Shown here: one piece after another, positions 3,533-38,014 of the stretch
Position numbering within the stretch: position 1 is the first letter of the stretch
Layout of the letters: every line of letters starts with the position of its first letter
Source of the DNA: Candidatus Omnitrophota bacterium
GTDB taxonomy: Bacteria; Omnitrophota; Omnitrophia; Omnitrophales; Aquincolibacteriaceae
Direction of reading: 5' to 3'
NCBI GenBank assembly: GCA_043732705.1
Contig: JAYTHE010000032.1
Span: forward strand, 2,005 to 66,004
Length of the DNA stretch: 64,000 bases
Translations under genes and position numbers: made by a program
Notes under the pieces: model-generated
The model's database searches: none
Seen by the model: only the letters and a program-made list of their open reading frames with translations
What the model was told of the DNA's origin: nothing

Positions 3533-3543
3533 AGAAGTCTATT

Positions 3544-3822: not shown

Positions 3823-4041
3823 ATGGGGCAGAACGGAGCGGTTATTTTAGTCGTGATTTGCGCCGTGTTGGGGCCGGCAGCTGTTATCGCGGTGCTGGGT
3901 GCGGCCAGTATTAAAGCTTTGGGGCGAAATCCTTCCGCGGCGCCCAAAATTTATATGGGTGTAATTTTGATGCTTGTTTTCACTGAGGCAACTTCAATTA
4001 TGGCTTTGATGGTTATTTTTCATATTTTTGGGTCGAAATGA
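3823..4041 (+). CDS. atpE: F-type ATPase c subunit (proteolipid)
   Basis: 72-aa two-helix hairpin; Gly/Ala-rich helix 1, polar loop GRNPSAAP, conserved carboxylate E in helix 2 (VFTEATSIM). Confidence 0.7.
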   Translation: MGQNGAVILVVICAVLGPAAVIAVLGAASIKALGRNPSAAPKIYMGVILMLVFTEATSIMALMVIFHIFGSK

Positions 4042-4063
4042 TTTGTAAGAAGGAACAAAACCT

Positions 4064-4789: not shown

Positions 4790-4813
4790 TTTCTCGGGAT
4801 GAAGAGGTTTTGA

Positions 4814-5719: not shown

Positions 5720-5723
5720 GTTT

Positions 5724-9540: not shown

Positions 9541-10769
9541 AAATTTACCATTATCGCGCTAAAAAAAGCCCGACCGAAGTGAGAGAGGGAACTCTTCAAG
9601 CTGAGACTGAAGAAGAGGTCATCACGAAGGTTAATGATATGGGGTTAGTAGTGGTTCAGATTCAAGAGGTAACTGATAAGCCCGAGTCTGCGGCCTCTGC
9701 GCTTCATACCAATGAGCGCGCGCGTCCGTATCGAGGCCTATTGGGGCATGCCGTGACGCGTTTCTATAAGCAGTTTGGCCGACTCATTCAATCGGGTATC
9801 CCTATACTTCAGGCACTGAAGTTAATGGCTGATCAAACTGAAAGTGTCCGTCTCAAACATATTATTCAGGAAATCCAAAAAAATGTTGCTGAGGGGCTTC
9901 CTTTGTCACAGGCGCTATTTAAATATCCCGAGTATTTTTCCCCGTTTGACCTTGCCATGATCGAGGCCGGAGAATTGGTGGGACATTTGGACGAATCTTT
10001 GAAGCGGATAGCAATTTATCGAGATAGCCAGGAAAAACTGATGTCGAAAATCCGCGGATCGCTTGCATATCCGATTTTTGTGACGGTGGCGGGAGTCGCT
10101 GCGATTGTTTTTATGCTGTCTTTTGTGATGCCTAAGTTTAGTTTGTTTTTCTTGGATTTAGGACAAGAGCTGCCGCTTTTAACCCGGCTTTTAATCGGAG
10201 CTAGTCACATTGCAGAAAAAAGCTGGATCGGAATTTTAGGCGCGGCCGTTGTTTTATTTTTTATTTTCCGACGATCTTTACAGGCGGATGCCAAGCAAAT
10301 GGGGTGGCATCGTTTTTATTTAGGGCTTCCCAAAATCGGCCGCTTGATTGTGTATTCACAATTTTCACGATTTGCGCGAACTTTGAGCCTCTTGCTTGAA
10401 AGCGGAATTCCGCTGCTTAAAGCTTTACAGACTTCTTTGCCCGTTGTTACCAATCAAGTGATCCGCGCGCAATTACAGGTTTGCCACGCCGCGATCGTTG
10501 AGGGCGGCAGTTTTGGGGAAGCTTTGCGCCGCTCGGATCGAGTACCGGTTTTTGTGACCCAATTAATTCGAGCAGGCGAAGAGTCTGGGCGGCTGCAAGA
10601 GTCGTTGAATGATATTTCCGATTGGTATGAACAAGAGTTGCAGGAGAATGCGGAAGTTTTAACCAAACTTTTGGAACCGATTTTAATTTTAGCGGTAGGA
10701 GCGATCTTAGGGCTGATGGTGATTGCGGTGCTGCTTCCCATTTTTAGCATGAATGCGGCGGTTTCTTAA
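9537..10769 (+). CDS. gspF: GspF/PilC inner-membrane platform protein
   Basis: Two tandem GspF domains with three transmembrane segments; ATGA overlap with the gspE stop (the alternative upstream start at 9513 is less likely). Confidence 0.85.
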   Translation: MKIYHYRAKKSPTEVREGTLQAETEEEVITKVNDMGLVVVQIQEVTDKPESAASALHTNERARPYRGLLGHAVTRFYKQFGRLIQSGIPILQALKLMADQTESVRLKHIIQEIQKNVAEGLPLSQALFKYPEYFSPFDLAMIEAGELVGHLDESLKRIAIYRDSQEKLMSKIRGSLAYPIFVTVAGVAAIVFMLSFVMPKFSLFFLDLGQELPLLTRLLIGASHIAEKSWIGILGAAVVLFFIFRRSLQADAKQMGWHRFYLGLPKIGRLIVYSQFSRFARTLSLLLESGIPLLKALQTSLPVVTNQVIRAQLQVCHAAIVEGGSFGEALRRSDRVPVFVTQLIRAGEESGRLQESLNDISDWYEQELQENAEVLTKLLEPILILAVGAILGLMVIAVLLPIFSMNAAVS

Positions 10770-10776
10770 GTTATTC

Positions 10777-10876
10777 TGCCTCTGCGCGAGTAACCGATAC
10801 TGTGATAATTAAAGCCTCTACGCAAAAGCGCAACCGGCACGATCATAATGAATGCCTCTGCGCAAGCGCAACCGGC
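10777..10876. repeat. three direct repeats (GCCTCTGCGCAAGCGCAACCGGCA-like) at 36-40 bp spacing, just upstream of gspG
   Basis: Copies at 10777, 10813 and 10853; the last two are near-identical over about 24 nt; followed by RBS GGAG and ATG 10888. Confidence 0.5.
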
Positions 10877-10887
10877 AAAAAGGAGTA

Positions 10888-11317
10888 TATGAAAATGAAA
10901 GACTTTAAAGAACGAGGATTTACGCTGATTGAGATTTTATTGGTGGTCATTATTATCAGTACGCTTTCGGCAATGGTTTTACCGCGCCTCGTAGGCCGTT
11001 CCGACCAGGCGCGTGTCGCGACGGCGAAAGCGGACGTTCAAGTTAATATTCCTTCGGCATTAAAGCTATACGAACTTGATAATGGATTTTTTCCGTCAAC
11101 GGAGCAAGGGCTTCAGGCGTTATTTTCGAAGTCGGCGACGCAGCCAGTCCCGGAAAATTGGAATGGACCCTATTTAGAAAGAAAACCTATTGATCCTTGG
11201 GGGCGGCCTTACCAATATTTATCGCCCGGAATTAATCGTCCGCATGATTATGATTTATTTTCCATGGGGAAAGTCGCGGATCCAAAAAAGACGGAAGATG
11301 ATATTACAAATTGGTGA
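10888..11317 (+). CDS. gspG: major pseudopilin GspG (type IV pilin-like)
   Basis: Prepilin leader MKMKDFKERG|FTLIEILLVV; GspG-like C-terminus (DPWGRPYQY); the ORF-track start at 10802 would translate the repeat region. Confidence 0.8.
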
Positions 11318-11321
11318 CCGG

Positions 11322-11729
11322 GTGAAATTAAAACCGAAAAGAAAAATAAAAGGTTTTACGCTGATCGAAGTGCTGCTCAGCGTAATGATTCTTTCTTTCG
11401 GTTTGATTACGGTGAATCAAATACTTTTACGTTCATTAAGCATTTTGAGCTATTCACAAACACGTTTTCAAGCCAACCGGGTCTTAGAAAATAAAATTTT
11501 TGAAATTCAAAATCAAACGTGGCATCAAAAACAAGCGCCCTCCTCCCGCGAGGACGGAGTTTTGCTTGGGGACCGCAAAACATTTTCATATAAAATGCAA
11601 TCCGTCAGCGTAAGAGGATCGAAATTTTTATATGAAATTCGTATGGCAATTCATTGGCTTGAATCCGGAAAAGAAAAAGGACTGACGCGAACATTTTATG
11701 CCCGCCTTCCGTACACCCCCCCAGTCTAA
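11322..11729 (+). CDS. minor pseudopilin (GspH/I-like)
   Basis: Prepilin motif KG|FTLIEVLLSVMIL; start ambiguous (ATG 11298 or GTG 11322 five nt after the gspG stop). Confidence 0.55.
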   Translation: MKLKPKRKIKGFTLIEVLLSVMILSFGLITVNQILLRSLSILSYSQTRFQANRVLENKIFEIQNQTWHQKQAPSSREDGVLLGDRKTFSYKMQSVSVRGSKFLYEIRMAIHWLESGKEKGLTRTFYARLPYTPPV

Positions 11730-12339
11730 ATCCGGTTTTACACTGATCGAGCTATTAGTCTCGATGGTTATTGCCGTGTTTGTTGGCGGGGCAATTTTTG
11801 TGACTTTTGCGCAGGGCATTCGGATTTGGCAGGCGGCGGTACGGGAAAGTCAGCATGGCAAAGAAGAGTTTTTCTTCGAAGAGCTGAAATCAGAATTACG
11901 CAATGCTTTCCTCTATAAGAAGTCAGCATTAAATGGACAGAGCCAAATGTTTGAATTTCACACTTTGGCAGCGCAGTTACGCGGAAAAAATAAAAACCAA
12001 AAAATTTGGAAAGTCCCGGCGCAAATTCGTTACCGTTTTGATCCGAGTCAGAAACTCATTCGGAAAGAAGTTACTTTTTATGAGAAGATGCTGACAGAAA
12101 AGGGTGGGGTGGATCAAACCCGGGTTGTTCTTGAGGCTGTCACGGATGTAAATATAGAGTATTATCGACACCCGAAGAAAGGTTCGTCGGCAAGTTGGGT
12201 GCGTCATTGGAGCGACACTTGTTTTCCGGAGGCGGTTAAAATTACAATTGAAACTGAATCCGGCCCTAAGATGAAAGAAGTTCGAATTGTGTCAATTCCC
12301 GCAACTGGGGAATGCACAGAAGAGGAAAGTGCGGTATGA
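11698..12339 (+). CDS. minor pseudopilin (GspJ-like)
   Basis: Leader MPAFRTPPQSKSG|FTLIELLVSMVIAV. Confidence 0.6.
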   Translation: MPAFRTPPQSKSGFTLIELLVSMVIAVFVGGAIFVTFAQGIRIWQAAVRESQHGKEEFFFEELKSELRNAFLYKKSALNGQSQMFEFHTLAAQLRGKNKNQKIWKVPAQIRYRFDPSQKLIRKEVTFYEKMLTEKGGVDQTRVVLEAVTDVNIEYYRHPKKGSSASWVRHWSDTCFPEAVKITIETESGPKMKEVRIVSIPATGECTEEESAV

Positions 12340-13892: not shown

Positions 13893-14594
13893 TTGATGGC
13901 AAATAAAAAATTTAATATAGGTGAGTTTCTTGGTCAGCGCACCAAAGGCGAAAAGACGCTGGGGCTGGCGGCTGCTATTACTGTTTTTGCGGGATTGATG
14001 TATGGCGTGGTGATCGGCCCGATTTTGACAAAAATGAATGCTATCGACACGGATATTTCAACCAGCCGCGATGAAATTCGCCGCGACAGACGTATTTTAT
14101 CGTTTAAAAATCGAATATTAGAAGAGTATTCCAAGTCTAATTCATATCTGGACTCAACGCAAAAAAGTTCGGAGGAAATTATCGCGACATTGCTCAAAAA
14201 AATTGAGGGTGTCGCAAAGGATAATTCAATTACTGTGAAGGACATTCGCCCCGGAGAAACCGAAATGAAGCCGCAGTTTAAAGTTTATAAAACAAGCATG
14301 GATTGCGAGGGTACTCTCACTAACTTATTGGCTTTAATGAATACACTTGAACAGTCAGACTATCTTTTCCAAATTACTCGCTACAGCTTGGAGCCAAAAT
14401 CAAAAGGCGCGGATATATTGAAAGCCACTCTCGATATCGCCCGTTATCTGATTCCCGCTGAAAAAATCGAGGCTTCCATGCTGGAGACGAACAATATGCC
14501 CGCCGTGCCTGCGGACTCCCCGGCAACGGAAACATCCGAAGTCCCGGCATTTCCGGATATGCCCGGCGATGAACCCAAGCCCAAAAATTCATGA
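13893..14594 (+). CDS. GspM/PilO-like bitopic inner-membrane protein
   Basis: Short cytoplasmic N-terminus, one transmembrane segment, periplasmic coiled region, Pro/Glu-rich tail. Confidence 0.45.
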   Translation: MMANKKFNIGEFLGQRTKGEKTLGLAAAITVFAGLMYGVVIGPILTKMNAIDTDISTSRDEIRRDRRILSFKNRILEEYSKSNSYLDSTQKSSEEIIATLLKKIEGVAKDNSITVKDIRPGETEMKPQFKVYKTSMDCEGTLTNLLALMNTLEQSDYLFQITRYSLEPKSKGADILKATLDIARYLIPAEKIEASMLETNNMPAVPADSPATETSEVPAFPDMPGDEPKPKNS

Positions 14595-15412
14595 ACAAAA
14601 AACGGCTCTTTTTTATTTCTTTTTTTCTTTGCGTAAATTTTATTTTTCCGGTCACCCTGTTTGCGGATCCTGCCGCGCCCGTGGATTCCTCAAGTAATTA
14701 CGAAAAAGCGGTATCCTTTTTAAAAGAAGACCAATACGATTCAGCTATTGAATTTTTTCAAAAAGCATTGCAAGAGGATCACGGCCCCGCCGAACAAGCG
14801 CGGATTTATAATTTGATCGGATTAGCCTATCTCAAGCAAGGTGTTTCAACATCAAGCGCAGTTGGTTCTTTTGAGCAGGCGATTAAACTTGATCCGCAAT
14901 TTGCCGAAGCCTATTTTAATATTGCGAGCGCTTATGCCGGTAATAACGCGCAGACCGAAAAGGCAGCGGAGTATTTTCAGAAAACGATTGAAATTGACCC
15001 GCATTTTTTTAAGGCTTATTTTGGGTTGGGTTGGTTTACTTTGATGCAAAAGGATGATCCCGCTAAGGCCGCTGAATATTTTCAAAAGACCCTGGACCAA
15101 TATCCAGAATTTGCTGAGGCTTATTATGGGATGGGCTTGGCTTATATTCGCACCCACAAACCACATATGGCTTTAGGCGCGGTCTCACAGTTGCGTGGTT
15201 TGAAGCGTGATGATTTAGCCGCGGTTTTGGAGCAGGCGATCAAGGACGTTTCTCCGCCGGCGGATTCAGGAACGCCGGCACCAGCGCAAGCGGTAAGAGG
15301 TGCCCCGGCTACTGCTGCGCCGCAACAGCAGGAAACCGCCCGTCCTAAAGCGCATTCGCCGTTTGAGATGGTGATGAAGGGCCGGCTGACCCCGCCTAAA
15401 AAATCCTCATAG
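14591..15412 (+). CDS. secreted TPR-repeat protein (PilF/PilW-like piloting factor?)
   Basis: Signal peptide; about five TPR units (AEAYFNIASAY, FKAYFGLGWF, AEAYYGMGLAY); ATGA overlap with the previous gene. Confidence 0.55.
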   Translation: MNKKRLFFISFFLCVNFIFPVTLFADPAAPVDSSSNYEKAVSFLKEDQYDSAIEFFQKALQEDHGPAEQARIYNLIGLAYLKQGVSTSSAVGSFEQAIKLDPQFAEAYFNIASAYAGNNAQTEKAAEYFQKTIEIDPHFFKAYFGLGWFTLMQKDDPAKAAEYFQKTLDQYPEFAEAYYGMGLAYIRTHKPHMALGAVSQLRGLKRDDLAAVLEQAIKDVSPPADSGTPAPAQAVRGAPATAAPQQQETARPKAHSPFEMVMKGRLTPPKKSS

Positions 15413-15419: not shown

Positions 15420-15764
15420 CTAGTCTTTTTTAATTTTTTTCAGTTGATGCTCGAGTTGAGCAACTGCCTGAGCCAAAGATTCCGTGCGGGAGTTTTGCTC
15501 GTTGATATAAAGCGTTAAATGTAAACTGAGAAAAATAACGAAAACAAGCAGCATAAAGAAAATAAAATTACTCGGCAAACTGAAACCCGCCCAATTTGAA
15601 ATTTGAACGAGCAAGCTGTTATTGAACGCAAAAAATAAAGCCACTCCGCAGCCGATAAACCAGTTTGCGGCATATTTAAATGTCATTTTTTCACGGCGTA
15701 TGAGATCTACCACGGCCGCAACGATAATGAGCGCAATGACAATAATCAGGAACTTAGTTTGCAT
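15420..15764 (-). CDS. DUF2304-family small membrane protein (GT2-associated)
   Basis: Four hydrophobic segments; MQTKF start preceded by GGAGAT; classic position immediately 3' of a GT2 polyprenyl-phosphate glycosyltransferase. Confidence 0.55.
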   Translation of the reverse strand: MQTKFLIIVIALIIVAAVVDLIRREKMTFKYAANWFIGCGVALFFAFNNSLLVQISNWAGFSLPSNFIFFMLLVFVIFLSLHLTLYINEQNSRTESLAQAVAQLEHQLKKIKKD

Positions 15765-16479
15765 GTTTGGATATCTCCGGTTTTTTCTTAAGAGCATCGA
15801 TTAGAATGGCAAGTGTTACTTTCAGCATATAATAGAGCGTCGCTAAATAGCGGATGGACGATTGTCCGCCGCGCCGCTCGCGCATTTGGACGGGAATTTC
15901 ACCGATCCGGGACCTGTGGCGCCGCGCTATTTTAATTGCTTCCGGTTCCGGAAAATCAATAGGATAATACTCGGCAAAGCGGCATATCAGGTTGCGGTTG
16001 CAGGCTCTGAATCCCGAGGTTGGGTCCGTGAGGTAGAGGCCTGTCATTAATTTGAGCAGACTACAGAAAAAGCGGATGCCCAGGCGCCGCATCCATGTGG
16101 ATTTAAATGAGTCATCATGAATAATGAAACGGCTGCCGATACAGAGATCCAAATGATTGTCGAGAAGAGGCTGAATGATTTCTTTTAAATAACGCGGATC
16201 ATGCTGGCCGTCGCCGTCAATTTGAACCGCAATGTCATAGCCCATTTCGGCCGCAATTTTGTAGCCGGTTTGGACAGCGCCGCCGATTCCCATATTAAAG
16301 GGCAGGGTCACGACATCGGCGCCGGCTTTGAGAGCCTCAATCTCGGTTTGATCGCGGGATTGATCATTGATGACTAAAATATCGGCAAAAGAAGCGGCCA
16401 AGCGAATTTCCGAGATAAGTCCGGCAATCGCTTTTTCCTCGTTGTAAGCGGGAATAATAATTAAAATTTTAGAGGACAT
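15754..16479 (-). CDS. GT2 polyprenyl-phosphate sugar synthase (DPM1/ArnC-like)
   Basis: IIIPAYNEE...VINDQSRD...DGDGQHDP motifs (DXD). Confidence 0.8.
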   Translation of the reverse strand: MSSKILIIIPAYNEEKAIAGLISEIRLAASFADILVINDQSRDQTEIEALKAGADVVTLPFNMGIGGAVQTGYKIAAEMGYDIAVQIDGDGQHDPRYLKEIIQPLLDNHLDLCIGSRFIIHDDSFKSTWMRRLGIRFFCSLLKLMTGLYLTDPTSGFRACNRNLICRFAEYYPIDFPEPEAIKIARRHRSRIGEIPVQMRERRGGQSSIRYLATLYYMLKVTLAILIDALKKKPEISKHAN

Positions 16480-16495
16480 AGGAAAAATTGAGTAA

Positions 16496-18985
16496 ATGAA
16501 CAGGTTTTTTTTTCAAAAACAAATCCTTTGGTTTTTGGCTTTTTCTATCGCGGTTTTGTTAGGGCTTTATTTCCGCACCTATTCATTGCATCAGATCCAA
16601 ACGCCGCCGCCCGAAAAAATGGCGGCTATTTTTGTTGAGCGCGTGCTCACCAAACAGTTTGAATCCGCTCTTGCTGCGCAAAGTCCAACGCTGTCGGGCG
16701 ATGATAAATTGAAACTGGCGCATGAGCAAGCGCAAAGAATGATTGAGTCGGATCCCGCCAATTATCAAAAAGCATTCAAGCAGGCACTCGATAGGATTAA
16801 TGAGGCCAGGCCGCATGTTTCCGACCGGCATTATTTGCTTGAAGCGGACCCCTATTACTATTTTTATCTTACTGAACAAATTATTCAAAACGGAAAAATC
16901 GCGCAAAAAATAAAAGGCGGCGAATACTTTCATACCTTGATGCATGCTCCTTATGGTTATTGGACCGCGATGACTTGGCATCCTTACCTGGGATACGGGA
17001 TCGGTCGGGTGGTGCATTTATTTTCCCCCCAAATGAATTGGATGGAAACGCTTTGCTGGGTTCCGCTTGTTTTGAGCGTTTTAGCTTGTATGAGTTTTTT
17101 CTTTTTAGCCCGGGCACTTCAAATGGAATTTTTCCAGGTTTTGATCGGCGGCTTGGCTTTGATGCTTTCGCCAATTTTTATGCAGCGCAGCGGATATGGC
17201 TGGTATGACACAGATCCTTATAACTATATATTCCCATTTTTAATTCTTGGGGTTGTTCTCACCGGACTTAGGAGCCAGAAATGGGCCGCCCGGTACGCAG
17301 TTTTAAGCGGCTTTTTAACGGGCCTTTACAGTATGTTTTGGACCGGCTGGGCATTTATGTTTTTACTTGTACCCACCGCGCTTTTGGCTGCCTATATCGC
17401 GGCGCGTTATGTTTTTCGGGTACATCCGAAGCCGTTGAGTATTTTTTTAAAGTATGGGGCGATTCACTTTGCGGCCTCAGGCTGTTTCGCGGCGCTTTTT
17501 TTGACTCCGCATGGACTTTGCAAATCTATTTCACTGGGATGGGAAATTTTGAGGAAGTTTTCTCTCTCGGACGGAGATGTTTGGCCGAACATTTTTCTTA
17601 CCGTAGGGGAAGCAAGGGGCGCCTCACTTAAAAAGCTTATTTATTTGTCCGGAAATTACATCACCTTTGGAATTGCCGTGTTCGGACTCTTGCGCTGCGG
17701 TTTAAAAGTTTACACAGAAAAAAAATCTGAAAATCTTGCCAAGTGGCTTTTTCTGTTTATTTTTTCGATTCCTTTATTTGTTTTGCCGTTTAAAACGGAG
17801 CGTTTCGCAGTGCTTTTTGTTGTGCCGCTTTGCATTTGGGTGATGTACGGGGCCTGTGAAGCGCAGGAACAGCTTAAAAATTTATTCAAAAAAATTATCG
17901 CGAATCCCACCCAGGAAGGCCTGTTAAAAAAGTTGAGTGCGGGGGTCATTATGCTTGTTTTTCTGCCCTTGCCCTTAATTACAGGCCATCTTGTTTCATT
18001 GGGAACAAAGCCGATCATGGACGACGCTTGGTTCGATACCATGCAGGAATTGCGTCAAAAAACTCCTGAAAATGCGGTCGTCAATAGTTGGTGGCCGCCG
18101 GGTTACTTTATTTCGGCTTTGGCGCACCGGCGCGTGATTGTGGACGGGGGAACGCAGCATTTACAGGAAGCTTATTGGGTCGCGCGGATTTTAGCGGCGC
18201 AAGACGAAAAAGAAGCCGGGGGTTTATTGCGGATGCTCAACCAAACAGGTAATGACGCGCTTCTTTTTCTAAAAGGATTCGGCGTTGAAATTTCAGACGC
18301 GATTGATTTAATTTCCTCCGTCGTTTCTGTTCCGCGCGAGCAGGCAATGAAACTACTTCCGCCCGACATGCCGCAGCAAGTAAAAAACCGGTTTTTGGAT
18401 TTAACGCATGGCACGGGAAAGATGCCGGCCTCTTATGTCTTGGTCTACAGTGATCTTATCGAACAAAACTTGGCGGTTACGATGATCGCACGTTGGAATT
18501 TTAAAAAAGCGCGTGAAGCAAAAACTCACCGCAGTTCAAATTATGCCCAAGATTTTATGAGTATGACGAATGGGGTTTTAAAGTACATGCCTGCGGCGGG
18601 AGTTCAAAAACAGGAGGGCAAAATCCTTTTCTTTTCAAGCGGACTGATGATTAACTTAGATTTAATGGATGCCGTTATCAGCTCGCCGCAGAAAAATATT
18701 CACGGCCGGCCGGTAAGTTTGTTTTTTATGAAAGACGGAAATTTGGAAGAAAAGGTTTTTGAAGGGCCGCGGGTCGACATGTCGGCGCTTTTGGTTCATG
18801 ATCGAGACGGAAGTTACCGGGCTGTTTTGGCTGACGCGCGTTTGATTCGTTCACTCCTGTTCCGCCTTTATTATCTTAATGGCGAGGGGCTCAGTTACTT
18901 TAAGCCCTTTTCAAGACAAAAAAATCCGCTCGATAACAATGAAGTGAGCGTTTTTGAATTTAAAAATGAAGCATTTCAATCTTAA
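16496..18985 (+). CDS. STT3/PglB/AglB-family oligosaccharyltransferase
   Basis: More than 10 transmembrane segments; EL1-like EADPYYYFYLTEQIIQNG...YGYWTAMTWHPYLGYGIG; DxD (YDTDPY); C-terminal NSWWPPGYF...IVDGGTQH matching WWDYGY...LVDGGKH of PglB. Confidence 0.7.
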   Translation: MNRFFFQKQILWFLAFSIAVLLGLYFRTYSLHQIQTPPPEKMAAIFVERVLTKQFESALAAQSPTLSGDDKLKLAHEQAQRMIESDPANYQKAFKQALDRINEARPHVSDRHYLLEADPYYYFYLTEQIIQNGKIAQKIKGGEYFHTLMHAPYGYWTAMTWHPYLGYGIGRVVHLFSPQMNWMETLCWVPLVLSVLACMSFFFLARALQMEFFQVLIGGLALMLSPIFMQRSGYGWYDTDPYNYIFPFLILGVVLTGLRSQKWAARYAVLSGFLTGLYSMFWTGWAFMFLLVPTALLAAYIAARYVFRVHPKPLSIFLKYGAIHFAASGCFAALFLTPHGLCKSISLGWEILRKFSLSDGDVWPNIFLTVGEARGASLKKLIYLSGNYITFGIAVFGLLRCGLKVYTEKKSENLAKWLFLFIFSIPLFVLPFKTERFAVLFVVPLCIWVMYGACEAQEQLKNLFKKIIANPTQEGLLKKLSAGVIMLVFLPLPLITGHLVSLGTKPIMDDAWFDTMQELRQKTPENAVVNSWWPPGYFISALAHRRVIVDGGTQHLQEAYWVARILAAQDEKEAGGLLRMLNQTGNDALLFLKGFGVEISDAIDLISSVVSVPREQAMKLLPPDMPQQVKNRFLDLTHGTGKMPASYVLVYSDLIEQNLAVTMIARWNFKKAREAKTHRSSNYAQDFMSMTNGVLKYMPAAGVQKQEGKILFFSSGLMINLDLMDAVISSPQKNIHGRPVSLFFMKDGNLEEKVFEGPRVDMSALLVHDRDGSYRAVLADARLIRSLLFRLYYLNGEGLSYFKPFSRQKNPLDNNEVSVFEFKNEAFQS

Positions 18986-19039
18986 GCAGCAACTCAAGTT
19001 GAGGTCTAGAAAATTCCGATGCCGGCCGATAATCTAAGC

Positions 19040-19387
19040 ATGAAAATTCAGCATTTTATTTTAGTTTTATTTCTTCTTGTTCCCGCTGTTTCTTTTGCGG
19101 CAGATGACAAAAAAGAAAACGAGTCTGTAAAAGTAAACGGCATTGTTTTTAATATCGCCAAAGACCGAAAAATTGAAAAAATCGGCGGAGTTTATGAGCC
19201 GGAAGGCATTGATAAGTATGTGGACCGGCGCATGAGCGAAATGACAGAGCGACTTCAAAGAATTGAAATCCAACTTGATGAGACTAATAAAAAGCTGGAT
19301 AAGGTTTTCACTCAGCTGGCTTCAACCGTATCTGTATCCGCACCCACTTCGGCGCCTATTCCAACGAAAGATAAAACTAAAAAATGA
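19040..19387 (+). CDS. small secreted coiled-coil protein
   Basis: Signal peptide MKIQHFILVLFLLVPAVSFA|ADD. Confidence 0.4.
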   Translation: MKIQHFILVLFLLVPAVSFAADDKKENESVKVNGIVFNIAKDRKIEKIGGVYEPEGIDKYVDRRMSEMTERLQRIEIQLDETNKKLDKVFTQLASTVSVSAPTSAPIPTKDKTKK

Positions 19388-20424
19388 CGCCTGGTTTGAT
19401 TTCTGCGATTGTACTTAACTGGAACGGCAAAGATGTTATCGTTGCCTGTCTCGAAAGCCTTCTCGCTCAAACGTATTTATCCAAAGAAATTATTATTGTG
19501 GACAACGGTTCGGTGGACGGGTCGCTTGAGATGATTCGCTCGCGCTACGCGGGCAGGATCCAATTAATCGAAAACGGAAATAATCTTGGATTCGCAGAAG
19601 GTTGTAATGTCGGGATCCGTGCCGCGCAGGGTGAATTTATCGCGCTTGTGAACAGCGACTCCGTTTTGAGTCCTAACTGGATGGTTGAAATGGAGAAGGG
19701 GATTCAGCTTTCTCCCAAAATCGGAATGTGCGCCTGTAAAATTTATTTTTTAAAATATAAAGGCGTGATTGAAAATATGGGGCAAACCATTTCTCGGGAT
19801 GGTTTCGGGCGCACGCGCGGCAGGCTTGAAAAAGATACGGGACAATATGATAAAAGGCGTGCTGTTTTTTGCCCGAGCGGATGCGCTGCGCTTTATCGCA
19901 GAAAAATGCTGGATAAATGCGGGCTTTTTGACGAGAAATTTTTTGCTTACGCAGATGATATTGATATCGGTTTACGCGGCCGCCTCATGGGTTATGTATG
20001 TCACTGTATTTCCACCGCTGTTGCTTATCACCATCTCTCGGCATCTTTTGGTTTGCTTTCTCCGCTCAAAGCTTTTTTACTGGAGCGTAACAGGCTTTGG
20101 GTGGTCATTAAGTGTTATCCGCTACCGCATTTGCTGGCATCGCCTTTTCATACCCTGATGCGTTATTGGTACCACTTTATCGGGATTTTTCAAAAAAGGG
20201 GCCCGGCCGCGCAATATGTGAAGAAAATTTCTGTTTTTAGTTTGGCTTGGATCATGGTTAAGGTTTATCTTTCCACGCTTTATCACTTACCGCATCTCCT
20301 AAAAGAAAGACGCGAAATTCAAAAGAAAAGAAAAGCGACTACGCGCCAATTTGAACTATGGATGAAGTATTACGGTGTGAACTCCAAAGATACCGCTTTA
20401 AATGAACTTTCATTTCCGGAGTAG
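19384..20424 (+). CDS. GT2 family glycosyltransferase (rhamnosyl/galactosyl-transferase-like)
   Basis: SAIVLNWNG...IIVDNGSVDGS...NLGFAEGCN...VNSDS. Confidence 0.8.
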   Translation: MTPGLISAIVLNWNGKDVIVACLESLLAQTYLSKEIIIVDNGSVDGSLEMIRSRYAGRIQLIENGNNLGFAEGCNVGIRAAQGEFIALVNSDSVLSPNWMVEMEKGIQLSPKIGMCACKIYFLKYKGVIENMGQTISRDGFGRTRGRLEKDTGQYDKRRAVFCPSGCAALYRRKMLDKCGLFDEKFFAYADDIDIGLRGRLMGYVCHCISTAVAYHHLSASFGLLSPLKAFLLERNRLWVVIKCYPLPHLLASPFHTLMRYWYHFIGIFQKRGPAAQYVKKISVFSLAWIMVKVYLSTLYHLPHLLKERREIQKKRKATTRQFELWMKYYGVNSKDTALNELSFPE

Positions 20425-20426: not shown

Positions 20427-21425
20427 ATGAGCTCAATTAAAAACCAAAAAGGAAGCTTGCTGATTTTGGTTTTGTTCGCTTTGACAGTATTAAGCCTTTT
20501 AGCTTTCTCCGTCGGATATACGGTGCGTCAGAAGCTTCTTGTTGTTTCACGGCTCGAAGCTCGTGAAAATTTAAGGTTGGCAGCAGGCGCGGCTGTTCAA
20601 CAAGCCTCAACTGTACTTGCTGAAAATGGCGGGGGCTCGTATCAGTCACTTAATCAATTTTGGTCAAGTAACGAGACTCTCTGGAAAAAAGCAAAGATTG
20701 GAAATGTTGAATATTCGATTATGGCTCAGGGCGCCCCTGACGGCCCTGAATCGGTTTATGGATTAACGGATGAAGACCGCAAGATAAACCTGAATACTGC
20801 CGAGCCCGATCATTTGCAGGCGCTTTTTGAAAGTGTTGCGAGTGTTGAAAAGGAACAGGCACGGCGGATTGTAGCCGCGATCAAGGATTGGAAAGATGAG
20901 GATGATGATTTAAATGACGGCGGCGCGGAAAGCAAGGATTACTTGAGACGCAATCCTGCTTATGACGCTAAAAATGAAATTTTTAATGATTTGCAAGAGT
21001 TGCTTTGGGTGCAGGGAATGACCCCGGAAATTTTTTCAAAAGTAAAACCCTATCTCACCTTGGACGCAGCAAAAGTGAATGTCAATACAGCTTCCCAAGA
21101 AGTTTTAACCGCCATGGGGCTTAATTCAAATATTGCTTCAAAAATAATTTCTTTTCGAAAAGGTAAAGACGGTCAGGAGAGCACCGCGGATGACGGTGTA
21201 TTTAAAGATTTGAATGAAATTTCCGAAGTGCTTGGTCGCTATATTTATTTGAACGAGGCGGACACGCAAAGTTTGAATTTAATCTTTTCCAAGGGTTTTT
21301 CCGTGAATTCCACTTTTTATAACGCCGAAGTGGATGCGCAAGTGAATCAGCGTCAAAAAATCAAAGTGAATGCCGTATTAGACGGCGAGGGAAAGGTTCA
21401 GCGATGGCACGAAGAGTTTTTTTAA
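20427..21425 (+). CDS. gspK: GspK-like minor pseudopilin
   Basis: N-terminal transmembrane segment (LLILVLFALTVLSLLAF); two HhH-like NLNTAEP / VNVNTAS motifs typical of GspK. Confidence 0.6.
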   Translation: MSSIKNQKGSLLILVLFALTVLSLLAFSVGYTVRQKLLVVSRLEARENLRLAAGAAVQQASTVLAENGGGSYQSLNQFWSSNETLWKKAKIGNVEYSIMAQGAPDGPESVYGLTDEDRKINLNTAEPDHLQALFESVASVEKEQARRIVAAIKDWKDEDDDLNDGGAESKDYLRRNPAYDAKNEIFNDLQELLWVQGMTPEIFSKVKPYLTLDAAKVNVNTASQEVLTAMGLNSNIASKIISFRKGKDGQESTADDGVFKDLNEISEVLGRYIYLNEADTQSLNLIFSKGFSVNSTFYNAEVDAQVNQRQKIKVNAVLDGEGKVQRWHEEFF

Positions 21426-22558
21426 TAGCCGGATTTTGGGCAGTTGCTGGTTTGTCCGTTTTTGCGGCGCCGCAGGCCGCGCAGGAAACCGGGGATGTAC
21501 TCGAAGAGCTGAAGCTTTTCGCAAAGGCGATGGGGGCGATTCATGAAGCCTATGTCGGGGAAACGAAGGCTCGCACGTTGACTTATGAAGCTATACGCGG
21601 GATGCTTGCGGGCCTGGGGGATAAATACGCCCAATTTTTTGATCCTTCGATGTATGAATTGCTGCAAATGAGTATTCGCGGAGAATATGCCGGGATTGGA
21701 GTGATTCTCCAAATCGTAGATCATTACCCTCAGGTGATGTCGCTTCGCCCGGATGGGGCCGCTATCAAGGCCGGTGTTCAAGCCGGCGATCGGATTTTGA
21801 AAATCGACGGTGTTTCAATTGAAAACAAAGAGCTGCCGGAAGTTGCCCAGCTTTTACGGGGGGAAGCTCGTTCGGATGTTAAATTGTCACTTGCGCGTCC
21901 ATCTGTTAAGCAAGTCGTGGAACTGATCATCAAGCGCGAAAGAATCGAAATTGAATCGGTCAAGGAAACCCGGATTATTTCTCAGGGAGTAGCGTATATA
22001 TCAATTGTTAACTTTCAGGAGAACACTAGCGAGCAAGTGAATCAAGCATTGAGAAAACTTGACAAACAAGGTCTAAAAGCGTTGATTATAGACTTGCGTG
22101 ACAATGGCGGCGGCCTTTTGGAGCAGGCAGTTGATTTAGCTGGGCTTTTTCTTCCCAAAGATAAAAAAGTAGTCAGCGTAACGAGTAAAATCGAAGTGCA
22201 GCAAAAAGAGCATATGACATCCGGGAAGTACGCGACGCGCAAAGAACCCATTGTAATTTTAGTGAATCAAAAATCAGCCAGCGCTTCTGAAATATTTTCG
22301 GCCTGTATGCAGGATTACCGCAGGGCAACGATTATTGGTACGCAAACTTTTGGTAAGGCTTCCGTTCAGTCTGTTGTTCCTCTAGATGAAAAAACGGCGA
22401 TGAAGTTTACAACCGCGCGTTACTTAAGCCCGTTGGGCCGCAAAATTGACGGAATCGGTATTAAGCCCGATGAAGTGGTGGAAAAAAACGAATCAGATAA
22501 ATTGGATTTACAGATTGTGCGCGCTTTAAGTTTTTTGGGTGAACGAGTTAAAAAATAG
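21404..22558 (+). CDS. ctpA: S41 C-terminal processing peptidase
   Basis: Signal peptide; PDZ region (GVQAGDRILKIDG); catalytic region NGGGLL...SASASE...GKASVQ. Confidence 0.85.
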   Translation: MARRVFLIAGFWAVAGLSVFAAPQAAQETGDVLEELKLFAKAMGAIHEAYVGETKARTLTYEAIRGMLAGLGDKYAQFFDPSMYELLQMSIRGEYAGIGVILQIVDHYPQVMSLRPDGAAIKAGVQAGDRILKIDGVSIENKELPEVAQLLRGEARSDVKLSLARPSVKQVVELIIKRERIEIESVKETRIISQGVAYISIVNFQENTSEQVNQALRKLDKQGLKALIIDLRDNGGGLLEQAVDLAGLFLPKDKKVVSVTSKIEVQQKEHMTSGKYATRKEPIVILVNQKSASASEIFSACMQDYRRATIIGTQTFGKASVQSVVPLDEKTAMKFTTARYLSPLGRKIDGIGIKPDEVVEKNESDKLDLQIVRALSFLGERVKK

Positions 22559-22579: not shown

Positions 22580-23065
22580 GTGAAAAAAAATCAAGCCCTG
22601 ATCGGGTTGCTGGCAGTTCTTATTATTGGACAATTTGGATTTGAGTGGGGAACTCAATCCGCAAAAAATAAGAGCGCGCCTCCGGCCGCAGCTGCGGCAT
22701 CAATGCCCACGACAAAGGGCGGCAACTTGCCTTTCCCGCAAATGATGGGTGCGTTGACACAAAATATGACGCTTTGGCCGGCACTCACGCAGGATAATAA
22801 GATGCATGCCGTTGAAGCCGCAGTTTTAATTTTTCGCGACCGTCAAAATTCAGCAATTTTAAGGCCTGCTGAATTTTATGCAACTCAGATTGACCAGGCG
22901 CTGCATGCTAATCCAACCTTACAGCAAACCGATCTCATCTCCATGGTGAAGATGATGGCGGTTATGCAATATGATTTTTATAACGGGCAGGATAAAGATA
23001 AGCTCGCCAAAGAAGTTTTGGGCGAAGCTATGTACGAAAGCATTCGCGCTCATCGCCCCAAATAA
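22580..23065 (+). CDS. secreted hypothetical protein
   Basis: N-terminal transmembrane/signal segment; no motif recognised. Confidence 0.4.
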   Translation: MKKNQALIGLLAVLIIGQFGFEWGTQSAKNKSAPPAAAAASMPTTKGGNLPFPQMMGALTQNMTLWPALTQDNKMHAVEAAVLIFRDRQNSAILRPAEFYATQIDQALHANPTLQQTDLISMVKMMAVMQYDFYNGQDKDKLAKEVLGEAMYESIRAHRPK

Positions 23066-23082: not shown

Positions 23083-23112
23083 AGCCGGCTGCTCGAGCAG
23101 TCGGCTTTTTTT
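23083..23112. terminator. bidirectional rho-independent terminator between convergent genes
   Basis: AAAAAGCCGGCTGCTCGAGCAGTCGGCTTTTTTT: GC hairpin flanked by an A-run and a T-run. Confidence 0.55.
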
Positions 23113-24571
23113 ATTTCAATTGAGGACAAGAATCGACTTTTGAAGCGGGCATCACCATTTGTCCATAAACTTCGAAAGTAAAGACCAGTGCTAGTCCACC
23201 CGCGTGCAAAAGCAGACGTTGTAAGGCTGTTTGAATTTGCCAAACGATTTCATGCGGAGATGTGTGCAAAACAACAAAATATCCAAACAAAATAAGCCAA
23301 GCTAACTGTGCCGATGTACCGCAGTTATTTCTTCTTAGTTTGGGCATGGCAGCATAAAAGAGGCAAGCTGATACAAATAAAGTCCAAAGGTAATTCCAAT
23401 TAGATTTTTCTGTCATGTAGCTTTTGAAGCCAAAGAGAATAATTTTTGTTTTTGACCAATCTAAGATTGAATGCAAATAAGTTCCTGCGCCACGCCCCGA
23501 ACCCAGGTAGTCACCGCTTTCAGCCAATGTAGTTTTAAGCACGAGAACGGCAAGAAGGGGAAGTAGAATTCCGAGGCTTAAATTGATCAAGCAGCTGCGC
23601 CAGCTTGGAATCTTCTTGATGTTTTTTAAAAAAAATAAACCCGCGGTGAATCCAGTCCAGCCGACAAAAAAAAGCCCTTCATTTTTTGTCCAGGCAGAGC
23701 AACCCGTCAACCAGCCCGCTAAGAAGAAAAGGCCTGTGTTTTTTGAACGGAAGGCTTCGAGTAAAAGTAACCCCGATGCTGTAAAAAAAAATAATAAAGG
23801 TACGTCGGCATACTGGCTAACGCCCCAAAATGAAAAAGCGCCAACTGTCATAAAGAAAGAAGAGCCCAATAGTCCGCTCAAAGGATGGATGGTGGCGCCG
23901 AGATACCAGGCTATTAAAAAAAGCGTCGAAAAAAGAAAAACGAATGCGACGACGGAGGGCCATATCTGCATTTCGCTGCCTGCCCAATTCCAGCCCCAGG
24001 CGACGGCTCCCGGTAAAAGCAGGGGGTAGTCAGGGTGGGTCCAGCTCAGAGAAGCGGAAAACATATTTTTCCATTCTTCGGGTGCACGAAAAAAGAAGCT
24101 GGCTTTAACATTCCAAAAAAATCGAGCGTCCCATCCGCCAAAAACATTGTTGATGGAAACCGATTGTAATAAAGTTGTGAATTTTAAAAAAATAAAAAGC
24201 CATAAGCTTAAAAAAATAATCCAAAGATTTTTTTGTGCTTTTGAGGCGGCCCGCCAGCTGAGCGACAAGGATTCGTACCATGATTTTTTCAAGCCGGAAT
24301 TATTTGTGATATTGAATGACGGCGACAGTGTCAACTTCATTATAAAAAAAGCCATGAGCGCCAATGCTGCAAGAGTTGAGAAAAAAGGGCCTTGATTGGC
24401 TTTAAGAAAATAGGATCCGAAAATGAGTAAGGAACAGATTGAGAGTCCTACCGGAAAAGAGAGCGCAAGAACGAAGAAGGGGTAAAAACGAAGATTAGCG
24501 TCTCGAGTTATATTTAAAATAAAAAGAGCGCCCAAAGCACCGGCAAATAAAAGCGGAAAGATGAAGGGCAT
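23111..24571 (-). CDS. polytopic membrane protein (putative GT-C-fold glycosyltransferase or O-antigen-ligase-like)
   Basis: 486 aa with more than 10 hydrophobic helices; context of lipid-linked sugar genes. Confidence 0.4.
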   Translation of the reverse strand: MPFIFPLLFAGALGALFILNITRDANLRFYPFFVLALSFPVGLSICSLLIFGSYFLKANQGPFFSTLAALALMAFFIMKLTLSPSFNITNNSGLKKSWYESLSLSWRAASKAQKNLWIIFLSLWLFIFLKFTTLLQSVSINNVFGGWDARFFWNVKASFFFRAPEEWKNMFSASLSWTHPDYPLLLPGAVAWGWNWAGSEMQIWPSVVAFVFLFSTLFLIAWYLGATIHPLSGLLGSSFFMTVGAFSFWGVSQYADVPLLFFFTASGLLLLEAFRSKNTGLFFLAGWLTGCSAWTKNEGLFFVGWTGFTAGLFFLKNIKKIPSWRSCLINLSLGILLPLLAVLVLKTTLAESGDYLGSGRGAGTYLHSILDWSKTKIILFGFKSYMTEKSNWNYLWTLFVSACLFYAAMPKLRRNNCGTSAQLAWLILFGYFVVLHTSPHEIVWQIQTALQRLLLHAGGLALVFTFEVYGQMVMPASKVDSCPQLK

Positions 24572-24572: not shown

Positions 24573-25058
24573 TTATTTTTTCACCGCGATGCCTTTGCCT
24601 TCAGCGAGCGGCAGAAGAATGCGGTAGCCTGTTTCATCCATGCGCTTTTGAGCTACGAGTGTATTTGAGCAATAAATGATTGCAGCTCTTTGATCAGGCT
24701 CATGGCTGAGTATGGTTGGCGCAAGATAGCTTTGAGCTGTGTAAAGCCAGCTGATATTCGGCGCATAGGGTGTGAATGGAATGTCCGTAATGAAGCTTAC
24801 TTTTTCACGAGGCGGTAAAAAGGGTTTAAAAATTGAAAAAGGGGATCCAAAAGGAATAAAAGGTGTTTTGCCAAATAAAAGTTCAGCGAAAACCGCTCTA
24901 GGATACGAGGGGGGCACGGGTAACTGAGAGAAGACAGTCAAACAGATGATGACTCCGTGAAAAAGAAGTCCAAGTGTTGAGATTTTAGTCAAAGAAGTAT
25001 TTTTCATCAAGCCAATCTGGATATTGCAGTCAGAGCTTTTTTTAGCTACACTAGTCAA
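24573..25058 (-). CDS. hypothetical membrane-anchored protein
   Basis: One hydrophobic segment; abuts the downstream gene. Confidence 0.3.
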   Translation of the reverse strand: MTSVAKKSSDCNIQIGLMKNTSLTKISTLGLLFHGVIICLTVFSQLPVPPSYPRAVFAELLFGKTPFIPFGSPFSIFKPFLPPREKVSFITDIPFTPYAPNISWLYTAQSYLAPTILSHEPDQRAAIIYCSNTLVAQKRMDETGYRILLPLAEGKGIAVKK

Positions 25059-27700: not shown

Positions 27701-27701
27701 A

Positions 27702-28514
27702 TTGGCCGCACAGTCGAATCAGGCTCTTCAAGATTTAATAGAAATTTCCAAAAGCGTCGCGCAACATCCGCGGCTTGTGCAGGGCGGCGGCGGTAATTGT
27801 TCGGTAAAGTCCGGCGGCAAACGCTGGGTCAAAGCCTCAGGTTGTTTCCTGGAAGATGTTTCCGAGAAAAAAGGTTTTGCGATTGTGGATGCCGTGAGCG
27901 GCGCACCCTTGGATGAAACCAGCGGCAAAGCATCGATGGAGACTCCACTTCATACTTTGCTCGGCTCTTTCGTTATTCATACTCACCCTGTCGCGATTGC
28001 AGCCTTCACGTCGAGCACCGAAAGCCAGCATTGGTTTAAGCAGCTTTTTTCCGATCCACTTTACGTTTGGGTACCTTACGCGACTCCAGGAAAAAATTTA
28101 TTTGAAAAGGTGCGGTCTATTGTTTCCGCGCAAGATTGTCAAACCGACAAAGTGCTTTTTTTACAAAATCACGGTCTTTTTGTGACTTCTGAATCAAAAC
28201 AGCGGGCGCTTGATTTACATGAAAGAACGGTGTCAAGTGTAGAAAAATTTTTTGAAAAAAATAAAACGCCGGCTGAAATACCTTCTGACCATTTTTTGAC
28301 ACCGGATCATGTGATTTACGGTCAATTAAAAAACAATGCGGTTTCTCTTAAACAAAAAACCGCCGTTGATGAAACGCTTCTACTGGTGGGAGAAGCGCTT
28401 GCGCTTATGCATCAAAAGGGCGGAGCTCCGCATTGGCTTTTAAACAGTGAAGTAGCGCTGCTTTCGAATATGGAAGAAGAAAAACATCGCCGACAGGTTT
28501 GGGAAAAATCATGA
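27702..28514 (+). CDS. class II aldolase/adducin-family protein (TTG start)
   Basis: GGGGNCS and HTHP zinc-site motifs. Confidence 0.65.
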   Translation: MAAQSNQALQDLIEISKSVAQHPRLVQGGGGNCSVKSGGKRWVKASGCFLEDVSEKKGFAIVDAVSGAPLDETSGKASMETPLHTLLGSFVIHTHPVAIAAFTSSTESQHWFKQLFSDPLYVWVPYATPGKNLFEKVRSIVSAQDCQTDKVLFLQNHGLFVTSESKQRALDLHERTVSSVEKFFEKNKTPAEIPSDHFLTPDHVIYGQLKNNAVSLKQKTAVDETLLLVGEALALMHQKGGAPHWLLNSEVALLSNMEEEKHRRQVWEKS

Positions 28515-30838: not shown

Positions 30839-30912
30839 AAACGCCGCAGGTTGAGCGCAAGCTCAGGGACAAAAATGAAAGCACAACTGATTGGGCGTAG
30901 CCCAGAGGAAAA

Positions 30913-32126: not shown

Positions 32127-32131
32127 AGCAA

Positions 32132-37936: not shown

Positions 37937-38014
37937 GTGTTTTATTATAGCGATAGTTGCGTTAAATCAAAAAGGTGTTTTAAGATTATTTGCTGAAAAG
38001 CCGATAATGCATTC

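Follow-up and report, generated by a model that had tools for sequence, protein, structure and literature searches.

The 64-kb stretch of a Candidatus Omnitrophota genome analysed here (contig JAYTHE010000032.1; this whole stretch is referred to as the window, and all coordinates are given in its numbering) encodes an 829-amino acid (aa) membrane protein that is a member of the STT3/AglB/PglB superfamily (GT66) of GT-C glycosyltransferases. Its gene lies in a conserved cluster for a type II secretion system (T2SS)/type IV filament-like machine, and it belongs to a subfamily in which the catalytic residues of known oligosaccharyltransferases (OSTs) are kept but the aspartate of the WWDYG motif is lost. 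We propose that the protein would be an active STT3-superfamily GT-C with its catalytic centre toward the periplasm, representing a large, Omnitrophota-specific subfamily in which the sequon pocket that accepts the +2 Ser/Thr may have been rebuilt (WWD to WW[P/S/C/A/T]PG, DK/MI to D-x-x-E-x-N and DGGK to DGGT) and whose gene would have become a clade-specific accessory of the machine. The enzyme would most likely take a short glycan off a polyprenyl-phosphate carrier and attach it to a protein assembled or exported by the machine, at a non-classical site. For the clade of the window the donor would most simply be supplied by the divergently encoded pair of a GT2 glycosyltransferase (GT2a) and a DUF2304 protein, as a polyprenyl-monophosphate sugar made on the cytoplasmic face in the manner of GacI/GacJ and PpgS/Rv3632; a second GT2 (GT2b) may optionally extend the glycan in some species, and the arrangement would mirror the monophosphate-linked donors of euryarchaeal AglB. 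Taken as a whole, this explanation, comprising an active enzyme, a rebuilt pocket, a role as machine accessory and a GT2a/DUF2304-derived donor, is one which we regard as evenly poised. Its most far-reaching form, an STT3 branch with a new acceptor specificity (another amide or sequence context) acting as dedicated modifier of a T2SS/type IV filament with a GacI/GacJ-type monophosphate donor, is advanced tentatively, being on balance rather unlikely; if true, it would constitute a previously unrecognised class of bacterial protein glycosylation, with STT3 chemistry built into a pseudopilus operon.

Membership of the superfamily follows from hidden Markov models (HMMs), fold and four catalytic motifs. 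As anticipated in the original prediction, an earlier reading of this DNA from its letters, the protein matches Pfam STT3 (PF02516; 75.5 bits, cut-off 24.5, E 7.6e-21), and it also matches STT3-PglB_core (PF21436; 27.2 bits, cut-off 23), while its homologues carry the same STT3 Pfam domains in precomputed annotations. An AlphaFold2 model built on 57 relatives (predicted local distance difference test, pLDDT, 92.4; predicted template modelling score, pTM, 0.88) consists of a GT-C membrane domain and a C-terminal periplasmic globular domain. Foldseek comparison of this model with the PDB ranked C. lari PglB first (E 7e-18 to 3e-16, target TM 0.67-0.70), followed by A. fulgidus AglB and human and yeast STT3, and the top 19 matches are all PglB, AglB or STT3 (E 7e-18 to 2.5e-11). 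Non-OST GT-C enzymes are far behind (DPY19 1e-6, AftA 2e-5, ArnT 1e-3, PMT 3e-3), and this ranking rules out an ArnT/PMT/YfhO-type identity, which the original prediction had named as the competitor of its STT3/PglB/AglB assignment; the assignment itself holds by HMM, by profile alignment to solved OSTs and by fold. The features on which it was built were all located, namely the 829-aa polytopic open reading frame (ORF), the GT2, DUF2304 and the 16-bp gap between start codons, as were the motifs EADPYYYF (D118), GWYDTDPY (D238/D240) and SWWPPGYF...DGGTQH (532-555). The best NCBIfam match is archaeo_STT3 (TIGR04154) with 56.5 bits as compared to a cut-off of 450, and the PglB equivalog NF050801 is reached with just 15.8 bits versus a cut-off of 1300. 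As these scores are far under the PglB and archaeal STT3 cut-offs, WWDYG fails, and DGGK and DK/MI are at best ambiguous, the protein was filed as a new subfamily, neither PglB nor AglB.

Catalytic residues were compared in an alignment of the 57 relatives, which extends down to 30% identity, and in profile alignments to solved OSTs. D118, the aspartate of the first DXD motif in external loop 1, aligns with the Asp of 'GNDPWYY' in A. fulgidus AglB (D47 by printed coordinates) and of 'EFDPYF' in human STT3A (D49), and the second DXD, D238-T-D240, aligns with 'GFNDHH' of A. fulgidus AglB (D161-H-H by printed coordinates) and 'GSYDNE' of STT3A. The GE of the TIXE/SVSE-type motif T369-V-G-E372 aligns with 'NGE' of A. 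fulgidus AglB, and pLDDT falls to 64-83 at this motif, as expected for the flexible external loop 5. R436 aligns with the Arg of 'QNRF' in A. fulgidus AglB, which we take to be R426. The latter residue is close to the phosphate site (PMC8342417). The comparison with PglB and AglB catalytic residues that had originally been suggested as a check thus yielded aligned counterparts for both DXD motifs, the TIXE-type Glu and the Arg. Since D118, D238/D240, E372 and R436 are invariant across all 57 sequences, the catalytic centre appears to be intact, which makes glycosyltransferase activity of the protein very probable.

The motifs that define OSTs are two DXD motifs, TIXE/SVSE, WWDYG, DGGK or DNXTZNX[T/S], and DK (D-x-x-K-x-x-x-M/I) or MI (M-x-x-I) on a kinked helix, of which WWDYG and DK/MI together form the +2 Ser/Thr sequon pocket (PMC8342417); DGGK is the version found in PglB and euryarchaeal AglB, and DNXTZNX[T/S] that of eukaryotes and TACK/Asgard archaea. 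In the 829-aa protein the segment SWWPPGY matches SWWDYGY of STT3A and SWWDYGH of A. fulgidus AglB column for column, such that the WWDYG-like block noticed in the original prediction does align, yet it lacks, family-wide, the Asp that contacts the hydroxyl of the +2 Ser/Thr together with the two Trp, and the presumed DK/MI position differs. Within the 57-member alignment W533, P535 and G536 are invariant and position 534 is occupied by Pro (52), Ser (4) or Ala (1), while a census of 197 fetched relatives returned WWPPG (147), WWSPG (22), WWCPG (6), WWAPG (5) and WWTPG (2). The Asp is lacking in 57/57 aligned and 195/197 fetched relatives, with WWDYG present just in the distant matches P0065 and P0066, and a few members have lost the first Trp as well (SWPPG, SWSPG, GWSPG). 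Further downstream, D550 and G551 of the DGGK-like block are invariant, the position of the Lys is Thr in 48/57 (T553) and Ser in 5/57, and Q554 is found in 54/57, with a conserved His after it. The counterpart of DK/MI would be a predicted kinked helix that follows a strand at residues 646-651, and it is on the model that we place D653, E656 and N658 at this position; conservation among the 57 is Asp 51 or Glu 6, Glu 40 or Asp 11, and Asn 54, respectively, with Ala at position 660 in 52. WWDYG persists in L039 and L047, the two genome relatives that have diverged most (~24% identity), and no T2SS genes lie close to either, the L039 contig being short and its context poorly sampled; on this basis, loss of the Asp appears to be a derived hallmark of the operon-linked clade. 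Because the +2-binding Asp is absent family-wide and the presumed DK/MI position differs, it is doubtful that the protein acts as a classical N-x-S/T N-OST.

The WWxPG STT3-like family is large, diversified and nearly confined to Omnitrophota, and is not a stray gene. The exact protein is encoded on a 138-kb contig, all 64 of its named database relatives are labelled Candidatus Omnitrophota or Omnitrophica, and a scan of one genome per GTDB species gave 48 loci, nearly all labelled Omnitrophota with a few other or generic labels. A profile search of 1.84 billion cluster representatives produced 4,055 matches, 1,223 of them (50% identity clusters) at E <= 1e-30, and the best 150 matches cover most or all of the length at ~600 bits or more. 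Bacterial STT3 homologues are described as few, as nested within euryarchaeal sequences and as acquired from Euryarchaeota (PMC4973528); the original description of such homologues as uncommon is therefore apt for bacteria in general, but not within Omnitrophota, where they are widespread.

The 48 genome loci were searched with the window's proteins, and at least three T2SS-like genes were found adjacent to the STT3-like gene in 31 of the 41 loci that have at least 5 kb of flank on one side, in two gene orders. In clade A, to which the window belongs, the order is GspE-GspF-GspG-pseudopilin-GspJ-PilMN-PilO-TPR-(DUF2304 and GT2a, reverse strand)-STT3-122-aa protein-(GT2b)-GspK-S41-p161-(PMT_2-like GT-C and p161b, reverse strand). 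The gene for the 122-aa exported protein is always immediately 3' of the STT3-like gene in this clade and is syntenic in 26 genome loci. In clade B (29-33% identity) the order is GspE-F-G-I-J-K-PilMN-PilO-TPR followed by a convergent STT3-like gene, with no conserved genes on the far side of the latter, and a search for conserved upstream partners in this clade found none. PilM and PilN are fused into a single protein throughout this cluster family, thereby providing a specific probe for the machine, and in the reciprocal test a PilM-PilN profile retrieved 80 metagenome loci. An STT3-like gene is present in 18 of the 31 well-flanked loci: the class A loci (PilMN at least ~39% identical to that of the window) with enough flank all carry one with WW[P/S]PG, and class C loci, with the order E-F-G-(I)-J-K-MN-O (30-35% identity), have no STT3 within 8-10 kb. 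This STT3-free distant class includes L091, L093-L095, L097-L101, L107, L111, L117, L122, L123 and L126. Given that class A loci all carry the gene and the distant class is without it, the STT3-like gene is a conserved clade-specific accessory of the machine, not a universal core part. Its originally noted placement inside a pilus/secretion locus is real and is conserved across the phylum.

Individual loci depart from these arrangements. At 13033-19983 in L051, the closest long relative (PilMN 68% identical), GT2a and DUF2304 stay in place with no STT3-like gene next to the pair, and a more divergent member (WWSPG) is located behind p161, at the usual spot of the PMT_2-like GT-C and 3 kb from the pair. 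L055 has two STT3-like genes in tandem; in L034 and L041, which derive from the same groundwater Omnitrophota metagenome-assembled genome (JACPXL01), the complete cluster is present twice, with a separate STT3-like gene in each copy; and L111 consists of two tandem T2SS-like clusters without STT3.

With regard to the donor, GT2a matches Pfam GT2 at 69.7 bits and, in NCBIfam, PpgS at 104 bits (cut-off 370), AglJ at 84, dolichyl-phosphate hexose transferase at 43 and ArnC at 29, all below the equivalog cut-offs, and its best PDB matches are Pyrococcus DPMS (1.3e-13) and ArnC. As 104 bits is well short of 370, GT2a would be a relative and not an orthologue of PpgS, and the three sets of matches support the original description of the gene as a polyprenyl-phosphate sugar synthase GT2 with a DUF2304 partner. 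The DUF2304 proteins GacJ and Rv3632 bind and stimulate GT2 partners which make N-acetylhexosamine-phosphate-polyprenol for a GT-C outside the cytoplasm (10.1101/180810). GT2a and DUF2304 travel together in every locus that has either gene, and GT2a adjoins the STT3-like gene in ~25 genome loci, 6 of these without the PMT_2-like GT-C.

Several observations weigh against the reading put forward here, on the side of the donor, the machine and the acceptor alike. For the donor, the difficulty is the 486-aa protein encoded at the downstream end of the conserved cluster. It has no Pfam match of its own, its homologues carry PF13231/PF02366 (PMT_2/PMT), and its AlphaFold2 model (pLDDT 93) matches GT-C folds alone, weakly; together with the motifs GGWDAR and HPDYPLLLP, these results indicate that it is probably a GT-C glycosyltransferase without a globular domain. 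In three-component systems, polyprenyl-monophosphate sugars are usually consumed by GT-C enzymes of the PMT_2/ArnT type. By analogy with such systems (10.1101/180810), the 486-aa protein, which is syntenic in many loci, is a plausible alternative consumer, such that the GT2a/DUF2304 sugar would be used by it or by another GT-C of the region (the window also holds two weak PMT_2-like proteins, a DUF2079 protein and a second small GT2), and the STT3-like enzyme would take another lipid-linked glycan, produced by genes elsewhere in the genome. An adjacent GT2a is, moreover, absent in most of clade B and in L004, L027, L043 and L079, and in L051 the pair is in place while the STT3-like gene is elsewhere; the GT2a/DUF2304 pair is thus not uniquely tied to the STT3-like enzyme. 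Set against this are the 16-bp spacing of the start codons, the renewed presence of GT2a/DUF2304 next to the STT3-like gene in the rearranged clade B locus L028, and the use of monophosphate donors within the STT3 family, as illustrated by euryarchaeal AglB crystallised with dolichol-phosphate (PMC8342417). Among 26 well-flanked loci, GT2a and the PMT_2-like GT-C occur together in 9, GT2a alone in 6, the GT-C alone in 3 and neither in 8, so that GT2a is found beside the STT3-like gene without the PMT_2-like gene in 6/26 loci as compared to 3 for the reverse. On this evidence, consumption of the sugar by the PMT_2-like or another regional GT-C is possible, if on the doubtful side. Owing to the synteny of the PMT_2-like GT-C, the mixed co-occurrence and the scarcity of adjacent GT2a in clade B, the supply of the STT3-like enzyme by GT2a is a circumstantial link, the chances of which we take to be about even.

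For the machine, the class C clusters without STT3 mean that it does not need the enzyme. For the acceptor, orthologues of GspG, the I-like pseudopilin, GspJ, GspK, the 122-aa protein, p161, the PilO-like protein, the TPR protein, PilMN, S41 and others were scanned for sequons. No N-x-S/T is conserved in the exported domains of pseudopilins or neighbours, so that the sequon scan proposed in the original prediction was negative; the sequon density of GspG is 0.12 per 100 aa, and the sole frequent N-x-S/T sites are p161 N62 (11/22) and a cytoplasmic site in PilM. An unbiased scan of conserved-Asn contexts revealed no common non-canonical motif, N-x-A at N45 of the 122-aa protein and N90 of p161 being within chance, and the Ser/Thr/Pro/Ala-rich tails seen in the window's PilO-like, TPR, 122-aa and other proteins are not conserved in relatives. 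Comparison of STT3-linked with STT3-free clusters likewise identified no Asn specific to the former. The sole exposed clade-specific Ser/Thr/Asn/Gln differences in any cluster protein are Ser67, Gln102 and Gln138 of GspG in STT3-linked clusters versus Gly, Glu and Lys in STT3-free ones (T54, in the transmembrane segment, also differs), a contrast which phylogeny confounds; it is conceivable that these three residues are modification sites.

These negative results also bear on the possibility that the protein is an ordinary PglB-like N-OST, which would transfer an undecaprenyl-pyrophosphate-linked oligosaccharide to N-x-S/T or D/E-x-N-x-S/T of many periplasmic or surface proteins and would owe its place in the operon to co-regulation. 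All catalytic residues are kept, PglB is the best structural match, most members still have both Trp and the Gly of WWDYG, and D-G-G is present; in addition, the equation of D-x-x-E-x-N with DK/MI rests on order and secondary structure, and E656 or N658 on this neighbouring helix may replace the lost Asp and so preserve Ser/Thr recognition. Nevertheless, such an enzyme is improbable, as the WWD Asp is kept only in P0065/P0066 and in the T2SS-unlinked L039/L047, the first Trp has been lost in some members from a motif that forms the Ser/Thr pocket with DK/MI (PMC8342417), no cluster protein has a conserved N-x-S/T, PglC/WecA, Wzx and PglK were not found among the ORFs scanned across the window, and the PglB equivalog score is a small fraction of its cut-off. 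Of the original suggestion that an N-OST glycosylates N-x-S/T sites of pilins, the family call and the locus stand, but the missing Asp and the lack of a conserved sequon speak against the remainder. In the reading that we prefer, a peptide amide acceptor is argued for by the invariance of the TIXE-type strand and of the amide-activating acidic residues, the rebuilt pocket argues for release from the +2 Ser/Thr requirement, and the operon context points to one of the machine's subunits, assembly proteins or cargoes as the acceptor. It is very improbable that no protein is glycosylated and that the enzyme acts on a lipid, an envelope glycan or peptidoglycan around the filament or serves as a structural assembly factor, since the degenerate sequon-reading pocket, the negative acceptor scans and a locus without a secretin, which leaves envelope passage unexplained, would fit such a role but the acidic residues, the Arg and the peptide-pairing TIXE-type strand are invariant at 30% identity, which points to retained catalysis on a peptide-like amide acceptor, and no STT3-family member is known to act on non-protein acceptors.

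The features of the locus are compiled in Table 1. Its T2SS/type IV filament parts comprise an assembly ATPase, a platform protein, major and minor pseudopilins and PilM/N, with PilO weak; secretin and prepilin peptidase gave no Pfam match among the ORFs scanned across the 64-kb window and may sit elsewhere in the genome. GspK scores 104 bits against NCBIfam T2SS_GspK, under the cut-off of 130. An independent gene call on an identical contig placed the start of DUF2304 at an inner ATG (114 aa, 15420-15764), which reduces its overlap with GT2a to 11 nt as compared to 44 by the ORF list, and left the other genes the same. Promoter and terminator scans around the divergent junction gave nothing above shuffled expectation. 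The 122-aa exported protein belongs to no family in a Pfam scan and has, by orthologue alignment, the conserved core GV..N.A.DR..E..GG.Y.PEGLDKY. The gene for GT2b was found in a minority of loci.

Table 1. Genes of the STT3-like locus and key residues of the 829-aa protein, in window coordinates
Feature	Coordinates	Strand	Evidence
GspE with MshEN and PilZ domains	7213-9540	+	Pfam T2SSE 442 bits
GspF	9513-10769	+	Pfam T2SSF 191 bits
GspG	10802-11317	+	Pfam T2SSG 105 bits
I-like pseudopilin	11190-11729	+	Pfam scans
GspJ	11698-12339	+	Pfam T2SSJ 34 bits
PilM-PilN fusion, 522 aa	12312-13880	+	Pfam PilM 48 bits, PilN 33 bits
PilO-like protein, weak assignment	13893-14594	+	PF04350 15 bits, below cut-off 22
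TPR protein	14591-15412	+	Pfam
DUF2304 small membrane protein (GacJ/Rv3632 family), 125-aa ORF, overlaps GT2a	15420-15797	-	Pfam PF10066 69.6 bits
GT2a, 241 aa, soluble type, polyprenyl-phosphate sugar synthase kind (PpgS/GacI/AglJ/DPMS/ArnC-like)	15754-16479	-	Pfam, NCBIfam, PDB
Divergent junction between GT2a and STT3-like start codons, 16 bp, cat-aggaaaaattgagtaa-atg	16480-16495		Read from sequence
STT3/AglB/PglB-superfamily GT-C, Omnitrophota 'WWxPG' subfamily, 829 aa	16496-18985	+	Pfam, AlphaFold2, Foldseek, 57-member alignment
D118, first DXD-motif Asp, external loop 1 (EADPYYY)	16847-16849	+	Invariant, 57/57
D238-T-D240, second DXD (GWYDTDPY)	17207-17215	+	Both Asp invariant in 57
T369-V-G-E372, TIXE/SVSE-type motif, flexible external loop 5	17600-17611	+	G371 and E372 invariant; T369 and V370 at least 90% conserved
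R436 (TERF), putative lipid-phosphate-binding Arg by alignment	17801-17803	+	Invariant in 57
W532-W-P-P-G536 in place of WWDYG, Asp absent	18089-18103	+	Alignment to solved OSTs
D550-G-G-T-Q-H555, DGGK-like, Lys to Thr	18143-18160	+	57-member alignment
D653-L-I-E656-Q-N658-L-A660, predicted kinked helix after strand 646-651, presumed DK/MI position	18452-18475	+	Order and predicted secondary structure
Small exported protein, 122 aa (signal peptide, conserved core, coiled coil)	19019-19387	+	Synteny
GT2b, generic GT2, 346 aa	19384-20424	+	Pfam GT2 95.6 bits; generic GT2 matches in PDB
GspK-type minor pseudopilin, 332 aa	20427-21425	+	Pfam T2SSK_1st 73 bits, T2SSK 45 bits
S41 C-terminal processing peptidase	21404-22558	+	Pfam S41 183 bits; conserved downstream module by synteny
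p161, 161-aa exported protein	22580-23065	+	Conserved downstream module by synteny
PMT_2/ArnT-like GT-C, 486 aa, probably without globular domain	23111-24571	-	Homologues' domains, AlphaFold2, synteny
p161b, 161-aa protein	24573-25058	-	Conserved downstream module by synteny

Other parts of the window are also of note. ATP synthase-type genes (two alpha/beta-family subunits, an OSCP-like and a gamma-like protein) at 2039-7211 lead directly into the start of gspE. At 25640-33631, a polytopic membrane domain is fused to a phosphoribulokinase/uridine kinase domain in a protein of 686 aa, and the genes after it encode a class II aldolase, a 779-aa protein that combines two nucleotidyltransferase domains with a GT2 domain, a HAD hydrolase and the DUF2079 membrane protein; judged from their domains, these genes look like an unusual sugar-activation and glycosylation pathway. 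The region 36245-42844 is unusually rich in GT-C/GT2 pairs, with the two weak PMT_2-like membrane proteins (36245-37936, -; 41282-42844, +) and the second DPM1-sized GT2 (231 aa, 38015-38710), and it also encodes two methyltransferases and a 613-aa fusion of a reprolysin/M12-like metalloprotease with TPR (38707-40548). A cyclic di-GMP-I riboswitch (52994-53133, -; 58 bits, above gathering) immediately precedes the gene for a transglutaminase-like cysteine protease (52377-52928, -) and, together with the MshEN and C-terminal PilZ domains of GspE, would suggest cyclic di-GMP control of surface functions. Three FecR-domain proteins are encoded at 51083-52219, 53256-54215 and 54199-55470, and a tyrosine recombinase/integrase gene beside tRNA-Glu(CTC) at 61742-63002 marks a possible integration hotspot.

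For STT3, AglB and PglB, the acceptor rule N-x-S/T, fixed by the WWDYG and DK/MI pocket, is regarded as near-universal, and the Omnitrophota branch is without the sequon-reading Asp. If active, the enzyme would define a new class of specificity among enzymes that are central to glycobiology, would provide glycoengineering with a new scaffold and would give biochemistry its first access to the surface machinery of Omnitrophota, nanobacteria that are uncultured and possibly predatory and whose secretion/pilus loci are already suspected to be involved in prey contact; if it were a plain N-OST, it would be a useful but ordinary extension of the occurrence of OSTs. In the literature searched, no link of Omnitrophota or pseudopilins with STT3/OST was encountered, and two Omnitrophota genomics preprints that deal with secretion/pilus loci make no mention of one.

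Among known systems, Campylobacter PglB is the best structural match and has the same single-subunit architecture of GT-C membrane domain and periplasmic globular domain, and the first and second DXD, the TIXE-type Glu, the Arg and the D-G-G motif are common to both. The two proteins differ, however, in that identity is ~13-14%, WWDYG is replaced by WWPPG and DGGK by DGGT, and no M-x-x-I is evident in the 829-aa protein, which falls far short of the PglB equivalog; moreover, PglB is encoded in a pgl locus, as compared to a T2SS-like operon here with no pgl-type genes for pyrophosphate-linked glycan assembly nearby. Archaeal AglB, such as A. fulgidus AglB-L, resembles the protein in its profile alignment over the catalytic motifs, in TIGR04154 being the best NCBIfam match and in the adjacency here of an AglJ-like GT2, AglJ being the initiating GT2 of euryarchaeal AglB pathways, which use dolichol-monophosphate donors. 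In contrast, AglB keeps WWDYG and DK/MI and recognises N-x-S/T, its host is archaeal and not bacterial, and the 829-aa protein is far below the 450-bit cut-off. AglB genes serve a general purpose and are not known to form part of filament operons. AglB N-glycosylates archaellins and pilins, the subunits of type IV filaments (PMC5131992), which parallels the operon context of the 829-aa protein. The GacI/GacJ(/GacL) and PpgS/Rv3632(/Rv3779) systems share the soluble-type GT2 with a side-by-side DUF2304 partner, followed by a GT-C outside the cytoplasm (10.1101/180810), albeit that their GT-C is PMT_2/ArnT-like and acts on polysaccharides, whereas the adjacent GT-C here is STT3-like. P. aeruginosa TfpW adds arabinose to type IV pilin in the periplasm and draws on a polyprenyl-phosphate sugar donor (10.1101/2020.04.19.049825); it is an O-glycosylating arabinosyltransferase of the Emb/Aft-like kind and no STT3 homologue, but as a GT-C encoded within a type IV filament gene cluster it provides the closest functional analogy for a filament-dedicated GT-C.

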